Origin: a virus
Length of the DNA: 25,077 nt
Strand: one strand, 5' to 3'
IMG/VR virus record: IMGVR_UViG_3300048861_000143
Location: 1-25,077 of that record
Positions 331-10,289 of this stretch are shown here, in pieces. Position 1 is the first letter of the stretch. The number at the start of each line of letters is the position of its first letter. Made by a program: the position numbers and the translations under genes. The notes beneath the pieces are model-generated. The model was given only the letters and a program-made list of their open reading frames with translations, ran no database searches and was not told the origin of the DNA.

Positions 331-511
331 CGTTGGTTTCCCCTATGCTTACGAAGCGGCCGCGCTCATCTCGCGCGACGACGATACCGGAGGCTCCACA
401 CGCCAGACATTCCTTTGGGGAGCCGTCGTCGGAGTAGTGGCCGAGTAGACCCGTCCCGCCACAGCTAGGGCACGGCACCAGGTTCCGGGCCGTTTTGTCC
501 CGGTCAGTCAT
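317..511 (-). CDS. Small zinc-finger protein (DnaJ-type CxxCxGxG pairs)
   Basis: CPSCGGTG and CLACGASG motifs; start/stop coupling with neighbours. Confidence 0.75.
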   Translation of the reverse strand: MTDRDKTARNLVPCPSCGGTGLLGHYSDDGSPKECLACGASGIVVARDERGRFVSIGETNDEQP

Positions 512-2238: not shown

Positions 2239-2437
2239 GGCTGCTTACAACCTCCAAAATAGACCTGCGCCAGACCGCCCTAGCACGTGTGGTCATATGC
2301 TGCCCCGACAGCGGGCGGACAGTTAGTTTCCCCCAACTGTCGCATTCGATGACAGCTTTGTAGTTCGGTCGGCCCTTCACCAACACGACATCTCCCTCGG
2401 TTGCCTTGTCCGTCGTCTGGTTCGTGTCAGAAGCCAT
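2228..2437 (-). CDS. 69-aa hypothetical protein, possible SH3/KOW-like barrel
   Basis: GDVVLVKG...AVI...LTVR pattern; GGAGG RBS; variant motif (QTT). Confidence 0.6.
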   Translation of the reverse strand: MASDTNQTTDKATEGDVVLVKGRPNYKAVIECDSWGKLTVRPLSGQHMTTRARAVWRRSILEVVSSHAR

Positions 2438-2597
2438 GTGCTTCCCTCCACTCGTCTACTAGCGCCAACGCAGCTTCAAAGGTGATCCGCCGTTGGGCGG
2501 CTAAGGTCTCGGCGGCAGCGCGCCTGTGCCCTACGCGAATGAGAGCGCAGATATCCCATGCTAAGCGTGGGGGTGCGGGTGCGTCAGGATTCGGCAT
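2427..2597 (-). CDS. 56-aa hypothetical protein
   Basis: MPNPDAPAPPRLAWDICALIRVGHRRAAAETLAAQRRITFEAALALVDEWREAHGF*. AGGAG RBS; overlaps the stop of 2584-3285. Not in ORF track. Confidence 0.6.
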   Translation of the reverse strand: MPNPDAPAPPRLAWDICALIRVGHRRAAAETLAAQRRITFEAALALVDEWREAHGF

Positions 2598-3285
2598 CGT
2601 TCTTTCTCCTTGCTCTGTTCCGCTCTGCCGTAGCTACGGCCAGGTCATGTTTCCTCTGCGCCTCGGGACGATGCCCCAGGTAGTTCTTGGCGGTGGCGTA
2701 GGCCATCGGGATCGTGACGGTGCTCCGTCCGATCTTCCGCTGCCTGCCAGCCCGCATCAGTAGCTCGGGGGTTGGCACGTCGCGTCGGACCCAATCAGCC
2801 CGGATCGACTCTGCGCGGCGTTGCGCATCCTCCATCCGGGCGCGCTTCGACGCCTCTGCTCCGACGCGCCTCCCACCGCCCGCCTCCGCGCTGCGCTTCT
2901 TGGCCAGGAATAGCTTAACGGCCTCGTCCAGCACGTCCGCTCCTGCGTCTGGCGGGATGCGCAACCCGGCATCCACGGCAATCACCGTAGCGGCTCGCGC
3001 ACGTGCCGCAGCCAGGCACGCGGTCAGGTCGGAAACATCCCAAGCCAGCACCGGAAGCGACGCCACGTAGATCGTCTCCCCGATCGGCTTGCGCCTGGTC
3101 TCCCTGAGCATAGAGGCCCTGGCCTCCATCGCCTCTCTAGACTGGCCGCGCCGCTTCGCTGGCACCAGCACGTCCCGGTAGATAGAAGCGTCAGGCCAGT
3201 CCGGAACAACCCCGGAAAGAAGGGCCTCCTGAGCCGGGACCGGCCACGTTTTGGCGATGTTCGAGATGTAAGCCCTGTTTCGCAT
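2584..3285 (-). CDS. Serine recombinase/resolvase-fold protein with degenerate catalytic motifs
   Basis: Motif order matches a resolvase N-domain: RAYIS (cf. GYARVS), AQEALL, IYRD, R..ML...R..GETIYVASLPVLAWD..DL (cf. GDxLVVxxLDRLxR..DL). Basic helical C-terminus. Confidence 0.6.
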   Translation of the reverse strand: MRNRAYISNIAKTWPVPAQEALLSGVVPDWPDASIYRDVLVPAKRRGQSREAMEARASMLRETRRKPIGETIYVASLPVLAWDVSDLTACLAAARARAATVIAVDAGLRIPPDAGADVLDEAVKLFLAKKRSAEAGGGRRVGAEASKRARMEDAQRRAESIRADWVRRDVPTPELLMRAGRQRKIGRSTVTIPMAYATAKNYLGHRPEAQRKHDLAVATAERNRARRKNDAES

Positions 3286-3309
3286 GGCATCCGTGCTTTT
3301 GTTGTTTAC

Positions 3310-3338
3310 AAGCTATCCTCCGTTGATGCAAAATGCAA
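3310..3338 (-). promoter_or_regulatory. Candidate sigma70 promoter for the leftward operon
   Basis: Minus strand TTGCAT (3338-3333), 17-nt spacer, TAGCTT (3315-3310), in the AT-richer divergent gap 3286-3376. Confidence 0.5.
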
Positions 3339-3376
3339 GGGACAAAAGAGAGCAGCCAAACGGACGGAGCGGACAG

Positions 3377-3553
3377 ATGGCACAGACCGACAAGCCGAAG
3401 CGCAGAGAGTTCCCTATGCTGTCTGAGAAAACGCTAAAGGACGGCAAGGTCGAGTGGCGTTTCATGATGGGCAATCGGGTCGTCAGTCGGCACGAGACGC
3501 GCGAGGCGGCGGATGCGGCATTCCGCGCCGCAAAGCCTCAGTATTTTCGCTGA
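3377..3553 (+). CDS. 58-aa basic hypothetical protein
   Basis: Start reassigned to ATG 3377 (MAQTDKPKRR) after the leader repeat; HETREAA motif. Confidence 0.7.
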   Translation: MAQTDKPKRREFPMLSEKTLKDGKVEWRFMMGNRVVSRHETREAADAAFRAAKPQYFR

Positions 3554-3571
3554 TCTGATACGGAGGTCGGA

Positions 3572-3742
3572 ATGGCGTTCCCTAATCGCGTATGGCCCTG
3601 GCGCCGCGAAGATGAGTTAGACGTGGAGGCTTTGCAGGAGCGCGTCCGCAGGTTGCGTGACTTGCTAGCAGAGGCAGCTGCAGCAACAACGTGGATGCCG
3701 GATGATTGGAAGCGCCGCGCCCGCGAGGCGCAGACCGAGTAG
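3572..3742 (+). CDS. 56-aa hypothetical (coiled-coil) protein
   Basis: GGAGG RBS; MAFPNRVWPWRREDELDVEALQERVRRLRDLLAEAAAATTWMPDDWKRRAREAQTE*. Not in ORF track. Confidence 0.7.
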   Translation: MAFPNRVWPWRREDELDVEALQERVRRLRDLLAEAAAATTWMPDDWKRRAREAQTE

Positions 3743-3803
3743 CACCAACAGACCAACCTTTCCCAGTTTGGAAAGGGTTCACCAAACGGACGGAGCGGAC
3801 AGG

Positions 3804-4061
3804 ATGGCGGAGCGAGTAACTGAGGACGACCTGAGGCTCGCGGCCGAGTGGTGCGACAATTACGAGGAGGGCGCGGACGGTGCCGACGAGATGATTCGTC
3901 TGCGGCGCGTCGCAAACTGGCTTCGTAAGATGGCTGACGATCGCCAGCGCGAAAGTCAGGTCCGCGCCGGAATGAAGCAGACTGGCGCTCCTAGAAAGGT
4001 TGTTGTTCGCGCTCTTGCAACGCTTGAAGCGAAGCGGCGAATGGAAGCGGAACGGGTTTGA
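3804..4061 (+). CDS. 85-aa hypothetical protein
   Basis: Start reassigned to ATG 3804 (MAERVTEDDL) after the leader repeat. Confidence 0.75.
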   Translation: MAERVTEDDLRLAAEWCDNYEEGADGADEMIRLRRVANWLRKMADDRQRESQVRAGMKQTGAPRKVVVRALATLEAKRRMEAERV

Positions 4062-4083
4062 GCGACCAAGCGGAGGAGAGAAG

Positions 4084-4530
4084 GTGGCCCTGCCATATGA
4101 GAATGCGACGTCAGGAAAGGCGGCTGTCGAGGACATGCAGAAAATCCTGCGCGCGTTCGGGGCCGCGTCCTTCGGTGTCATGGAGGACTTCCAGGCCGGC
4201 GAGGTGATCGTGCAGTTCCAGTGGCGCGAGCGGCGAGTGACCATCAAAGCAAGCGCGAAGGGCTACGCTGCGGCATGGCTACGCCATCACCCATGGTCCA
4301 GCCGCATGCGCAGCAGCAAGGTTGACCACGAACGCAAGGCACTGAAGCAGGCGCAGGTGTCCGTCTATTCGATCCTGAGAGACTGGATCAAAGGCCAGAT
4401 CACGGCGGTTGAGGTGGGCATGCTGTCGTTCGAGGGAGCGTTTCTCGGGCAGATCCTACTGCCGAGCGGGCAGACCGTGTTGGAGCGCGTCGAGTCAAGC
4501 GACATGCTTGCGCTGGCCGCTCCGGAATAG
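4084..4530 (+). CDS. Conserved hypothetical phage protein (148 aa)
   Basis: GTG 4084 after GGAGGAG. LPYENATSG...ILRDWIKGQITAVE.G..SFE.AFL is a recognisable phage family of unknown function. Confidence 0.8.
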   Translation: MALPYENATSGKAAVEDMQKILRAFGAASFGVMEDFQAGEVIVQFQWRERRVTIKASAKGYAAAWLRHHPWSSRMRSSKVDHERKALKQAQVSVYSILRDWIKGQITAVEVGMLSFEGAFLGQILLPSGQTVLERVESSDMLALAAPE

Positions 4531-4550
4531 CCGACAAAACGGAGGATAAA

Positions 4551-4700
4551 CTTTGGATGGCCCCGCGCCTGAAGTTGAGTAGGGCGTTGCCGTAAGGGCG
4601 GGGCGGCTGAATTTTCGGAGCATAGGGGATTCGTCCCGCTACGCCCCTTCTTAGGGGACGCCGCCGAGAAGAACGCAGCATGTGTGCTGAACATCCAAGG
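4551..4700 (+). ncRNA. Candidate structured RNA (multi-branched; strand assumed from operon)
   Basis: Six nested helices found by eye, including a closing 9-bp stem and a UUCG hairpin; only 9-12-codon ORFs follow the upstream RBS. Confidence 0.5.
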
Positions 4701-4718
4701 CAGACCCAATCGGAAGCA

Positions 4719-4939
4719 ATGATGAAGTTCGTTTTCAAGGCTGGCGAGCGGTGTAAGTTCGATCCGTCGTTGCGATACTTGATCGATGCGAACCCGACGG
4801 AAATGGGCTCGTTACCGCGACATGCCGAGTTGAGGATGGCTTGACCGTTCCTGCTGAGCACGCGGAGCGAGTAGCCGAAGCGCTAAACGCTGTGCTCGGC
4901 CACATCGATGTTCCGGTCAGCATGATATCGCGTCGCTGA
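4719..4939 (+). pseudogene. Possibly frameshifted small gene, or two tiny ORFs (4719-4844 and 4841-4939)
   Basis: ATG 4719 frame stops at 4844. A shifted frame reads VRSVVAILDRCEPDGNGLVTATCRVEDGLTVPAEHAERVAEALNAVLG to TGA 4939 but is preceded by TAA. Confidence 0.35.
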
Positions 4940-5118
4940 TGCAAACCGGAGGCACAGAATTGGGAGTCCGCCCTGACATACAGTTTGAAATCGATCAGGC
5001 GGCCGCAAAGGCAACCGCAATCCAGTCGATCCTCGATAACCCGATCCATCCGCCAGCCAAGGCGGGAAGCGCCCGAACCGGCATATGCGGCAGCCAATCC
5101 GGCGGACAGAGCAGACAG

Positions 5119-5289
5119 ATGGTAGCGGACACCCTGGCGGATCGCGTCAAGCGGGCGACCGTTGAGCTCAATGGCGCGATCGAGGCCGCGGTGCGGGCTG
5201 GCCTTATGGTCAAGCTCGAGGTTCTGACCGCGCAGTCGATGACTGGCGAAATGCCCGTGCTTACCGTCCGGGTATTTGAGCCGGCATAG
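5119..5289 (+). CDS. 56-aa hypothetical protein (frame also open from TTG 4960)
   Basis: ATG 5119 follows the diverged leader repeat; ELNGAIEAAVRAGLMVKLEV. An alternative start TTG 4960 has a GGAGG RBS. Confidence 0.65.
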   Translation: MVADTLADRVKRATVELNGAIEAAVRAGLMVKLEVLTAQSMTGEMPVLTVRVFEPA

Positions 5290-5300
5290 CGCCGAACAAC

Positions 5301-5333
5301 AAAAAAGCCGCCGAGGGTTTCCCCCCGGCGGCC
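5301..5333 (-). terminator. Intrinsic terminator of the late operon (possibly bidirectional)
   Basis: GCCGCCG(5307-5313)/CGGCGGC(5326-5332) stem; A6 at 5301-5306 gives a U-tract on the minus strand; lies between convergent genes. Confidence 0.85.
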
Positions 5334-5340
5334 ATGAAGA

Positions 5341-8300
5341 TCAGTTGAAGTGGATCGCAGCGGTAGGAACCGCGGCAAGGCTCTTTAGGTCGACCGTGCC
5401 GGCTCCAGCGAACGCCAGGGTGGTCCCGCCATGGCCGTCAGACCCGACCTGCATCGAAGCCCTCAGGCTCTTGTCGATGGTCAGGGAGTCGCCCTTTCCA
5501 GTGGAGAAGTCGTCCACCGTGAGCGCCCCTGCCCCGGCATGCACGACGTACGCCGCGGAGCCCGCGCCGCCCGTGACCTCCATCGGGCCAGTCCCAGCAG
5601 TGAACGTGTTCACGCCAGTATCGGCAGTGACGTTGGAAGCGCCGCTCCCTCCCGTGAGGGTGACGCTGGCCATTCCGACGAAGTGCAAGCTCTGCACCTG
5701 GCTCCCGAGAGTGATCGCAGCGGACCCTGCCCCGGTGAGGGCAAAGACGTCGCCGTTGGCGTGGACCACCCCGGCCGTGGCCCCGGAGATGCTCAAGGAC
5801 GTGGACGAGCTCACCATGTCGATCTCGGCCTGCCCAGGGGCTGGGACGGGCGTCGGCGCCGGGGTGGGTGCCGGAGTCGGAGCGGGGGTTGGAGCCGGCG
5901 TGGTGCTCGGCAGCGGGCTCACGGACGAGCCGTTGCCGCCTGCCCAGCCGTCGCCACCCCACTGCCACCACAGGTCCGACGAGTTCTCCTGCCAGACGTT
6001 TCCGTCCACGTAGGCGATCTCGGTCACGCCCGCGCTGTAGCCGGCTGCCGAGCCGTTCTGCTGGACAACGCCATTGGTGATCGTCCAGGCGTTCCCCGAG
6101 GCGTCCACGATCGAGGCAGAGGATCCGGCCAGGACGACGGTGTCGTTGGCCGACGCTTGCACTGGAACAGGCGAGGGTGTCGGAGCAGGGGTTGGCGCAG
6201 GCGTCGGGTTCGGGACCGGGCTTCCGGTAGCCGATGGGTCGGAGGACGGCGCTGCGTTCAGGGGCACGACCGGCGTGCCGCCGCCGTTGACGCTGTTCGG
6301 ACCCTGGTTGGTGAGGATCTGGACGGAGGCCATGATCTGAGCCCCGAACTGCTCCATACCCTGGATCAGCGGGTTGTCCTGCTCGACGAGCTGGTCGGTC
6401 TGGAAGATGACCCGCCCAGCACCGGCATCGCCGGAATCGCGGATCATCGCCCCGTGGTTCTGCAGCTCATGCCAAAGCATGTTCGCCCCGGCATTGGCTT
6501 TCACCGCGTCCGGCTCGACTGCACCCTGGGCGATACCCACCGTGACACCGTAGGGGATAGTCCCGGAATAGGTCCCGGGCCCGTATCCGTCCTCCTGGGT
6601 CTGCGGCCAGGCGTAGGGAGCCATGTCGTCGAAGTTGTCGCCCCACGACGCCAGCATCGAGAACGGCATCTCCATGCGCAGCATGTGGTCGATGTGCCCG
6701 GCCGCGAGATCCGACGCTCGCAGTGTGCCGACGCCCTGGTCCCAGTTGGACCCGTCAACCTGGATCCCGGAGCCGTAGTCGGACTCGCCGGACCCCTGGC
6801 TGACCGTGGCCGTGTTACTCCCGGTCCAAGAGAATCCGCCCATGCCGTACCAGGTGTGCGTGGTGGTGTCGTCCACCGAGAACGTCATGTCCTGGCCGCC
6901 AGCCGGGGCCGCGCCGACCGGGATGTGCACGTAGTAGACACCCGGCGTGCTACCTGAGGCCCCCGTGTTGGTCACGGTCACCAGAGGATCGCTGGCCGTG
7001 CCCGTCCAGATGTTCTCGTTGTAGTTGCCGTTCGTGTTGATCCAGACCGAGGCGTGCGCGAGCTGGCTGTTGTACGCCCACTGTGCGCCAGTCCCGAGCG
7101 GCAGGTTGAACACCGACGTCGAGGCGAACGGGATCTGAGATGGATCGCGGAGGCCGCCGGTCCCGGTGCCGCCGGTTGGAGCGGGCGTCGGCGTCGGGAC
7201 GGGCCCGCCGGAGGCCGGCAATGGGCTGGTCGAGGTGCCGTCGCCGGTTCCCCATCCAGTCCCGCCATCCGACTTCCACCACAGGCCGCTAGCGTTCTCC
7301 TGCCAAACCGCCCCCTTGACGTAGGCGATCTCGGCGACGTTGGCCGTGTACCCAGCCGCCGAGCCGTCCCGAAGCACGGTGCCGCCGCCGCTGATCGACC
7401 AGGTGTGGCCGCTCGCATCGACAATCGTGGCGCTCGTTCCGGCCATGACGACCGTGCCATCGCTCGAGGCCGAAGCCGGCGCGGGGGAAGGAGTCGGTGT
7501 GGGAGTCGGGCTGCCAGTGGCTCCGCCGGTGCTCTGGCTGTAGAGCCAGCTGAGCGGAGAGTCAGGGCCGGTCTTCGTGTAGTAGGTGTCCCACACGTCG
7601 TGGCCGAGACTCGCGTCCTCAGTGTAGCGCATGTCGCCGCCAATCGCCTGCGACTGCGCGTAGACCGTGCGGTCGGTGGCAAGCGGGACCTGCGTGTCCT
7701 GGCCGCCGTGGATCGCCCAGTAGGGGACGTTCTTCAGCAGCGCCGCCATCTGCGTGGGGTCCTGACCGTAGTCAGCACCCGCGAGCGCGAGCCCGGCCGC
7801 GAAGATGTGCCCCTCGGTCCCGGTCAGGGCGTTGTACTTGATCAGCATGTCTTCGGTGCCGATCCCGCCCATGCTGTTGCCGGTCACGTAGACCCGGCTG
7901 GGATCGACCGAGTACTGCGCCATGACCTGCTTGAGCGCCGCGATCGCGTTCGTCTCGCCCGCGGTGTCAGCAGTGGACACGCCGCCCCAATTGATCGTGT
8001 TTCCGCCCGGGTCAGACGTCTGGTCCAGGAGCGGAGCTACGATGATCGAGGGGTGGTCTGTCCGGAAGGTCGGGGTGTTGAACCACGCGTCGATCTGCTG
8101 CTGTAGCGCTTCAGGCCCGTAGGACCCGTTGTCCAGCTGGTGCAGATACAGCGTGGTCGCATACGCCGTGTGCGCGTCGTAGCCGGCCGGCAGCAGGACC
8201 ATGTACTGCATGCCGTTGACCGAGGCGATCTGCCACTGTCCGGGCGAAGCGTCGTCTCCGGTTGTCACCGGGGGCGGTGTCGGCGTGGGGGTTGAGCCGC

Positions 8301-9820: not shown

Positions 9821-10279
9821 TTACGGCGCGGAAGGAGGTGGCTGCGCCGCCTGGAGCAGCGCTGGGAGGGCGGCCGAGAGAATGCTCAGGGCAGTCACGC
9901 TAGCCTCTGCGGCAGGCGGCAGTGCGCCTGGCGGCAGGGCTGCCATGATGATCTGAACGTCCCGAAGCACGTCTGCGGCGACCTGCGGTAGGTCGGTCGG
10001 GGCCTTGGTCGGGATTGCTGCTACCAAAGCTTCGGCGGCGTCCTCCGTGGCGCTGATGCTGGCCGCAACGTCGGGCGGCACTGGATTGGTCGCCATGTAG
10101 GCGATGGTCGCACCCTCAATTACGGCGAGTGCCGCGGCGGCTTGGATATGGACCTGCACCGGAGAAATCCGGATCGGGACCAATACCGGGAGAGGGGCTA
10201 CCGTCGGTGCCGGGTTTGTGTCGGCGCACGACGACAGGCCGAGCAGCGCGCACGCTGCTGCGGCAATGGTGAGGCGCAT
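9821..10279 (-). CDS. Lipoprotein, spanin candidate
   Basis: Signal peptide with lipobox LSSC; Pro-rich linker; hydrophobic C-terminal segment; last gene of the lysis cluster; AAGGA RBS. Confidence 0.6.
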   Translation of the reverse strand: MRLTIAAAACALLGLSSCADTNPAPTVAPLPVLVPIRISPVQVHIQAAAALAVIEGATIAYMATNPVPPDVAASISATEDAAEALVAAIPTKAPTDLPQVAADVLRDVQIIMAALPPGALPPAAEASVTALSILSAALPALLQAAQPPPSAP

Positions 10280-10289
10280 GAGTTCGTCC

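Follow-up and report, generated by a model that had tools for sequence, protein, structure and literature searches.

Start-associated sequences (SAS) of the Cluster K mycobacteriophages are 13-bp elements (consensus GGGATAGGAGCCC) present in 11–19 copies, in one orientation and 3–7 bp before start codons, which lie in the non-structural half of the genome and precede different gene families (PMC3203893); in a 2025 survey their function was still without a test (PMC12699233). A comparable set of short words is described here for the right array, a single + strand transcription unit of small genes at positions 3286–5340 of a 25,077-nt stretch of viral DNA (the window), which forms the first 25 kb of the 149.8-kb virus record IMGVR_UViG_3300048861_000143 (G+C 63%). 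This unit is divergent from a conserved gene, here called the hinge gene, behind which lies a left array of tiny overlapping genes. On comparison of the window sequence with that of related elements, the words are read, with a probability of about 0.6, as a start-associated module for translation initiation, with a second role as a seam for cassette exchange.

Like SAS, the window words are short and asymmetric, include the Shine–Dalgarno (SD) core, and stand in one orientation a few nucleotides before starts; their many copies are confined to the non-structural, early part of the genome and are rare elsewhere, and they precede unrelated gene families while being conserved among related phages, with an AACCCC-type word in nine elements. 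Unlike SAS, they are built on AACCCC or CCAAAC followed by CGGAGG instead of GGGATAGGAGCCC, have their conserved part mainly 5′ of the SD, lack inverted repeats of the type found in extended SAS (ESAS), and take up almost all of the spacer between genes in one tightly packed operon; SAS belong to actinobacteriophages, whereas the window family consists of soil proteobacterial elements, in relatives of which the breakpoints of cassette replacement and duplication map onto the words. By analogy, the window feature probably works like SAS, but it is not a member of the SAS sequence family. The word dialect of one relative, L063, contains GATAGGAGC, the central 9-mer of the SAS consensus (6634–6653, 6952–6971, 7197–7216 and 10265–10284), which may be convergence on an extended SD.

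A second point of comparison is the promoter early stem-loop (PeSL) of T4-type phages, a module of ∼100 bp comprising a sigma-70 early promoter and a terminator stem-loop (Arbiol et al. 2010, PMC2839356), copies of which flank orphan genes in hyperplastic regions, where recombination between copies deletes, inserts and replaces those genes (PMC2839356). The window family resembles this system in its repeated regulatory module, in that each gene keeps an expression signal, and, in relatives only, in that replacements end within copies of the module; it differs in having one promoter-like site in the region 2400–5500, no stable hairpins, and a module of only 11–25 nt that lies at the level of translation initiation.

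The right array is, as the preliminary description of this DNA had proposed, built like a row of cassettes: small genes of unrelated kinds, each with its own SD and start codon after a related word. The eight words listed there (at 3356, 3557, 3782, 4066, 4535, 4706, 4942 and 5094) are all exact and all on the + strand, standing 2–12 nt before start codons on the transcribed strand; at 8/8 sites a GGAG or GGAGG SD lies 2–10 nt before ATG, GTG or TTG, with the prefix directly 5′ of it. Their placement between each stop and the next start holds for five sites and fails at 3356, 4535 and 5094, because the first of these lies in the 5′ untranslated region (UTR), the second heads a slot that contains no gene, and the third falls within the open frame that begins at 4960. 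Three of the sites (3356–3376, 3782–3802 and 5094–5118) are copies of one longer leader of 21–25 nt, two of them identical over 21 nt; the other five have only ∼11 nt in common. The word at 3557 has no CAA prefix, that at 4066 differs by 1 mismatch from the word of the relatives, and that at 4706 is the window copy nearest to the AACCCC form.

This pattern is more than chance or plain resemblance to the SD. The tetramer CGGA stands before 8/8 right-array starts, as against 46/204 other starts of the genome (p 1.2e-5, Bonferroni 1e-3), and the base before GGAG is C in 5/6 array sites, compared with A 31, C 19, G 18 and T 16 in the other genes. To avoid a post-hoc definition, a word, CCAAACGGAGG, was defined from the relatives L058 and L059 only, and not from the window. 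Allowing at most 1 mismatch, it has 9 matches on both strands of the 150-kb genome, 4 of which are inside the right array, where the close matches are all on the + strand; 0.03 matches would be expected within the 1.2 kb of array (Poisson 4.5e-8). Allowing at most 2 mismatches in the 30 nt before starts, it precedes 6/8 array genes and 3/204 others (p 2e-8). The prefix is thus not equally frequent before the other ribosome-binding sites of the genome; equal frequency was what the preliminary description had named as fatal to its proposal. It is improbable, then, that there is no discrete signal, the words being composed of the SD, local base composition and three copies of a duplicated leader, with the other five sites due to chance. 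Such a reading can draw on the fact that half of each word is SD, that three of the eight sites form one repeat family, that the looser CAA is common before other starts (74/204), and that CCAA is marginal after correction (5/8 array starts versus 21/204 others, p 8e-4, Bonferroni 0.08); the open reading frames (ORFs) R2, R5, R6 and R7a are also weak, so that not all of the ‘starts’ need be genuine. It is already largely refuted, however, by the strong enrichment in the window array of a word defined independently in relatives, by the C before GGAG, and by the presence of a homologous pre-SD word ahead of unrelated genes in nine related elements.

These relatives were found by homologue search with the hinge protein, a search with the array protein R3, and a hinge profile (which returned 321 representative clusters), followed by contig look-ups. 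DNA or peptide patterns gave no useful close relative in phages or plasmids, pattern searches with the single hinge protein found no relatives in viral, metagenome or genome contigs, the exact 21-mer leader is absent from viral contigs, and the promoter pattern has no match in metagenome contigs. Nine independent elements with DNA were compared (L055/56, L057, L058, L059, L061, L063 with its variant L066, L060, L068/69 and L070/71). Hinge homologues are 42–67% identical to the window protein (43% in L063), and all nine elements have a common layout, in which the hinge gene has overlapping tiny genes on one side and, on the other, a divergent promoter followed by spaced small genes (∼18–35 nt apart in the relatives). 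The promoter region is conserved in L059, L058, L061 and L057; promoter and 5′UTR leader can be aligned among the window, L059, L058 and L061, with similarity falling to background at the first start codon, and in L058 and L061 the orthologous leaders precede unrelated first genes.

In the relatives the pre-SD form is AACCCC followed by 3–6 nt and the SD. AACCCC occurs before the SD at 18/36 of their divergent-array junctions and before 1/69 other genes of the same loci (p 1.7e-9, Bonferroni 1e-6), and CCCC at 22/36 and 2/69, respectively. Each element has its own fuller dialect of the word: in L063 it is a unit of 18–20 nt, present 8 times and directly abutting ATG; in L055 and L057 the TGA stop is fused to the AACCCC word; and L060, the hinge-like protein of which is only 27% identical, L068 and L070 also carry it. 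The closest relatives (hinge 53–67% identical) have intermediate forms bridging AACCCC and CCAAAC. Taken alone, then, the window holds what by sequence comparison appears to be a degenerate local form (CCAAAC, the ‘CAAN prefix’ of the preliminary description) of a family-wide pre-SD element. In L070 (3854–3927) and L071 (180–253), a gene for tRNA-Gly(TCC) opens the divergent array, with the conserved promoter immediately before it and an AACCCC word after it, which indicates that RNA genes can occupy cassette slots. In L060, ∼800 nt of degenerate GGCA/GGCG-rich short tandem repeats (430–1260, − strand) lie downstream of the array genes.

Gene content behind these junctions is almost entirely different between elements, so that gene order is not fixed in relatives, a point on which the preliminary description had staked its proposal. 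No array protein is shared at E<1e-3 among the window, L055, L057, L058 and L059, though their hinge proteins are 42–67% identical. Two cassettes are common to the window and L063. One is R3, gene 3 of the window array and 68% identical to gene 8 of L063, on the right in both; its DNA homology spans only ATG to stop, and the flanking junctions are in each element's own dialect. The other is the left-array gene 2228–2437, which is 55% identical to its L063 partner, likewise on the left. The search proposed in the preliminary description, for an ORF placed in the left array of one genome and the right array of another, found none, both L063-shared cassettes keeping their side. The word is also not inherited along with R4, a widely travelled phage gene with 47 homologues in viral contigs, since it is found upstream of 0/47 of these loci. 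In L060 the leader is followed first by a short R3-like ORF, consistent with the operon-internal leader before R3 in the window marking a formerly promoter-proximal cassette. Codon 3 of this L060 ORF (3003–3107, − strand) is an in-frame TGA, just past the ATG of the leader; the gene may be broken or read through, or the sequence may contain an error.

Cassette replacement can be followed between L063 and L066, the sequences of which match at 100% identity beginning with the junction word at L063 6955, and which also share a 44-nt island, again 100% identical, comprising the leader of the 5′UTR and the opening 7 nt of the first gene. Four cassettes in L063, and one different cassette in L066, lie between the island and the word at 6955; to the left of the island, L066 has a different promoter and an intact-looking resolvase (PF00239, E 4e-42) replacing the hinge protein. 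The N-terminus of this resolvase resembles the left-array leader peptide (L066:1–612 compared with L063:5081–5961). L063 in addition contains an exact cassette duplication of 234 nt, the left end of which is 7 nt before a junction word and the right end just after the AACCCCG of the next junction. All four breakpoints of the replacement and the duplication lie within leaders or junctions, and these together account for only ∼6% of the array. The single DNA sequencing run found to contain the window DNA (as contigs) is probably its source, and it shows no joints; the same run has a 151-nt minor-variant contig of R1 with a slightly different leader. No RNA run is listed as containing this DNA.

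Arrays of unrelated genes with sharp edges invite comparison with integrons, in which an IntI tyrosine recombinase acts on attC sites, imperfect inverted repeats of ∼57–141 bp, and cassettes are transcribed from the promoter Pc. The likeness lies in unrelated, promoterless small genes with one upstream promoter and variable content, beside a conserved recombinase-like gene. Read in this way, the words would be where a site-specific recombinase makes its crossovers, that enzyme being the hinge protein or an L066-like resolvase or invertase, in an integron- or shufflon-like array, and both the resolvase at the hinge position of L066 and the sharpness with which cassette breakpoints coincide with words would find an explanation. 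We consider this very improbable. The window hinge protein has no Pfam or PHROG match, its profile has no match among PDB sequences, and no tyrosine integrase is present; res, hix and gix sites are palindromic and used by serine recombinases, whereas the window words are asymmetric, have no inverted half-sites, measure only 11–25 nt and are anchored to starts at SD spacing, with the whole junction (18–34 nt) far below the size of attC. A true PF00239 resolvase occurs only in L066, where the swap of the hinge gene has left leader and junctions unchanged. The window junction is instead a sense-strand ribosome-binding module, and exchange looks homology-driven; nothing ties the words to site-specific recombination. 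Matches to CsrA-type GGA sites, to integron core sites or to gix-like half-sites were rejected, there being no second half-site and no factor.

A homology-driven route is in keeping with the gene content of the phage. The genome encodes an ERF-family single-strand annealing protein (102619–103683; PF04404, E 9.5e-12) and RecT is absent from it; L068 also has an ERF protein and L055 a RecT. De Paepe et al. (2014, PMC3945230) present relaxed homologous recombination by phage Rad52-like and ERF annealases, enzymes linked to recombination between short and diverged homologies, as a source of phage mosaicism, and such a route, a general mechanism and not a junction signal, would suit short imperfect homologies like the junction words. 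As the same 11–25 nt recur at every boundary, they would offer short homology for the duplication, replacement and exchange of cassettes between related elements, probably carried out by phage annealing recombinases such as the genome's own ERF-family protein. Copying is also suggested by the leaders: the two window copies are identical over 21 nt in unrelated flanks, while several positions separate them from the orthologous leaders of L058 and L061, which fits a recent event, and whole junctions are uniform within an element, the spacer after the SD included, which points to copying or gene conversion. We infer that exchange takes place in the window element itself, as in its relatives.

The initiation side of the favoured reading follows from the words being anchored to starts, containing the SD, being strand-specific and preceding unrelated genes. 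A module of fixed order, namely a C/A-rich pre-SD element (AACCCC in the family, CCAAAC locally), a CGGAG(G) SD, a short spacer and the start codon, would head each cassette of one early operon running from the promoter to the closing hairpin, and would let each unrelated, independently acquired small ORF begin translation by itself. The pre-SD element would then improve or regulate initiation. CA-rich leaders are known translation enhancers, and the A+C content at positions −26 to −13 is raised both in the relatives (0.66 versus 0.51, p 5e-7) and in the window (0.63 versus 0.53, p 0.017). By extended anti-SD pairing with the generally known 16S 3′ end, CCAAAC would gain at most two non-contiguous extra pairs.

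Several observations weigh against this favoured reading. Exchange at words is shown only in relatives and not in the window element; the match at five of the eight sites is short and half SD, and CCAA alone does not pass correction. Predicted SD accessibility, from pairing probabilities, is no better than in other genes (p 0.04–0.7), and the junction RNAs have no special structure (z −0.9 to +2.1) and no Rfam match, which together leave the ‘unstructured standby site’ version without computational support; the stretch of word 8 is the less structured extreme (z +2.1 relative to shuffles), and a small hairpin that precedes word 3 (3757–3776) is no more stable than shuffles (z −0.11). An exact hexamer, kept while hinge proteins diverge to 27% identity, is moreover more specific than a compositional enhancer needs, and favours a sequence-specific reader.

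Such a reader is the basis of a further explanation, in which a dedicated trans-acting factor recognises the pre-SD word and switches translation or stability of the whole array on or off, with recombination as a by-product; the factor could be an RNA-binding protein, a nuclease or a small RNA, of either phage or host origin. T4 RegA and RegB, which act on the initiation regions of early mRNAs, offer an analogue. The exactness of AACCCC across hinge proteins 27–43% identical, its fairly fixed distance to the SD, the dialect proper to each element, and the lack of an accessibility gain, which leaves a purely passive role unsupported, all agree with a factor of this kind, and for SAS a host- or phage-encoded reader was likewise left open (PMC3203893). 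Extended further, the word could be an address label by which any gene placed behind a junction is enrolled in one post-transcriptional regulon, the two junction grammars sorting cassettes to one side of the hinge gene, as would fit both L063-shared cassettes keeping their side; we regard this extension, too, as tentative. The trans-acting explanation as such is rather unlikely, given that no candidate factor, complementary RNA or conserved structure was identified, that the window words have largely lost the AACCCC core, and that L066 has the leader and junctions of L063 despite its resolvase neighbour and different promoter. The retention of words in L066 without a hinge protein indicates that this protein is not needed for them.

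The relation of the right array to the left one is chiefly one of contrast, and the architectural difference drawn in the preliminary description is real: right-array genes are 18–61 nt apart and have their own SD, whereas in the left array the stop of one gene overlaps the start of the next and the word is part of the coding sequence. The word GACAAAACGG does occur 4 times in the window (490–499, 859–868 and 1858–1867 on the − strand, 4533–4542 on the + strand), against 0.05 in shuffles. A common core of both arrays, as had been claimed, is nonetheless not borne out by the relatives, in which the left word encodes an N-terminal peptide ending in Thr-Thr (xTT), with both ACG and ACC as the first codon of the pair before ACC; their right word consists of AACCCC and then the SD. 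The right word of the relatives is without AAACGG; yet that of L058 has this hexamer while its left words lack it. Small genes at 93078–94518 (− strand) and 142718–143292 (+ strand) begin with a left-type motif (x-D/E-x-T-A) written in other Thr and Ala codons, which suggests a constraint at the level of the peptide; together with the differing words of relatives, the overlap in AAACGG is best read as coincidence, and to judge from these sequences the hexamer shared by both window arrays looks like one. A third set of small genes in a row (69600–78500, + strand) is punctuated in yet another way, by a GC hairpin with an AATCGG-type loop ∼20–26 nt before each start, so that every early operon of the phage has a junction grammar of its own.

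The record is that of a phage, as indicated by genes for a terminase, portal, protease, major head protein and GH108 lysin; the portal protein has ∼40% identity to those of Rhizobium phages, which are too distant for synteny. Positions 1–157 of the window match 149644–149800 of the record at 156/157 nt (one mismatch), an end repeat that marks the record as a circular assembly (or a terminally redundant one), and the left array runs on across the contig-end junction (148889–149744). The features of the right array are collected below. Coding scores are normal for R1, R3, R4 and R7b and weak for R2, R5, R6 and R7a. R1 has no Pfam or PHROG match, and a homologue search with R7b found none. The slot headed by word 5 shows no coding signal and no tRNA (4546–4718), is non-coding by codon score (4556–4718), and has no Rfam match and a fold no more than z −0.6 from shuffles (4531–4722); it may be a decayed cassette.

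Table. Positions of the right-array features in the window, with the promoter, hinge gene and closing hairpin.
Feature	Position	Strand	Remarks
Hinge gene, 233 aa	2584–3285	−	conserved anchor by which relatives were found
Promoter, sigma-70-like	3305–3334	+	TTTACA, 18 nt, CAAAAT; single such site in 2400–5500
Word 1, 21-nt 5′UTR leader ending at R1 ATG	3356–3376	+	exact 21-nt repeat with 3782–3802
R1, 58-aa orphan	3377–3553	+	coding score 0.17 per codon
Word 2, ACGGAGG part only	3557–3566	+	3 nt past R1 stop, 5 nt before ATG 3572
R2, 56-aa ORF	3572–3742	+	0.02 per codon, weak; still best of three frames
Word 3, second exact 21-nt leader copy, operon-internal	3782–3803	+	repeat family D7
R3, 85 aa	3804–4061	+	cassette common to relatives; normal coding score
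Word 4, CCAAGCGGAGG	4066–4076	+	4 nt past R3 stop, 7 nt before GTG 4084
R4, 148 aa, starts GTG 4084	4084–4530	+	phrog_17260, unknown function; normal coding score
Word 5	4533–4545	+	heads slot without protein gene; 12-codon ORF follows (4556–4594)
Word 6, ACCCAATCGGAAG	4704–4716	+	2–5 nt before ATG 4719 or 4722
R5	4719–4844	+	small ORF, weak, 0.01 per codon
R6	4841–4939	+	small ORF, weak, 0.07 per codon
Word 7	4942–4952	+	3 nt past TGA stop, 7 nt before TTG 4960
R7a, TTG start 4960	4960–5118	+	weak, 0.07 per codon; in frame with R7b, no stop between
Word 8, third, diverged long-leader copy ending at ATG 5119	5094–5118	+	repeat family D5, 90% identity to the 3361–3380 reference copy
R7b, 56 aa	5119–5289	+	0.27 per codon, best coding signal of the array
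Closing hairpin, GC-rich	5306–5333		faces convergent 1467-aa hydrolase gene

SAS have been known since 2011 without a shown function or a link to gene flux, and a comparable signal is now present in a large uncultured family, in which two near-identical haplotypes (L063 and L066) differ by cassette swaps that end in words. For annotation, the words show where tiny ORFs truly start and where cassettes have their edges. The family provides a system in which to ask if words of this kind act as adaptors for translation, as sites for a regulator, as seams for recombination or as all of these, and bears on how phages keep hypervariable arrays of accessory genes expressed.

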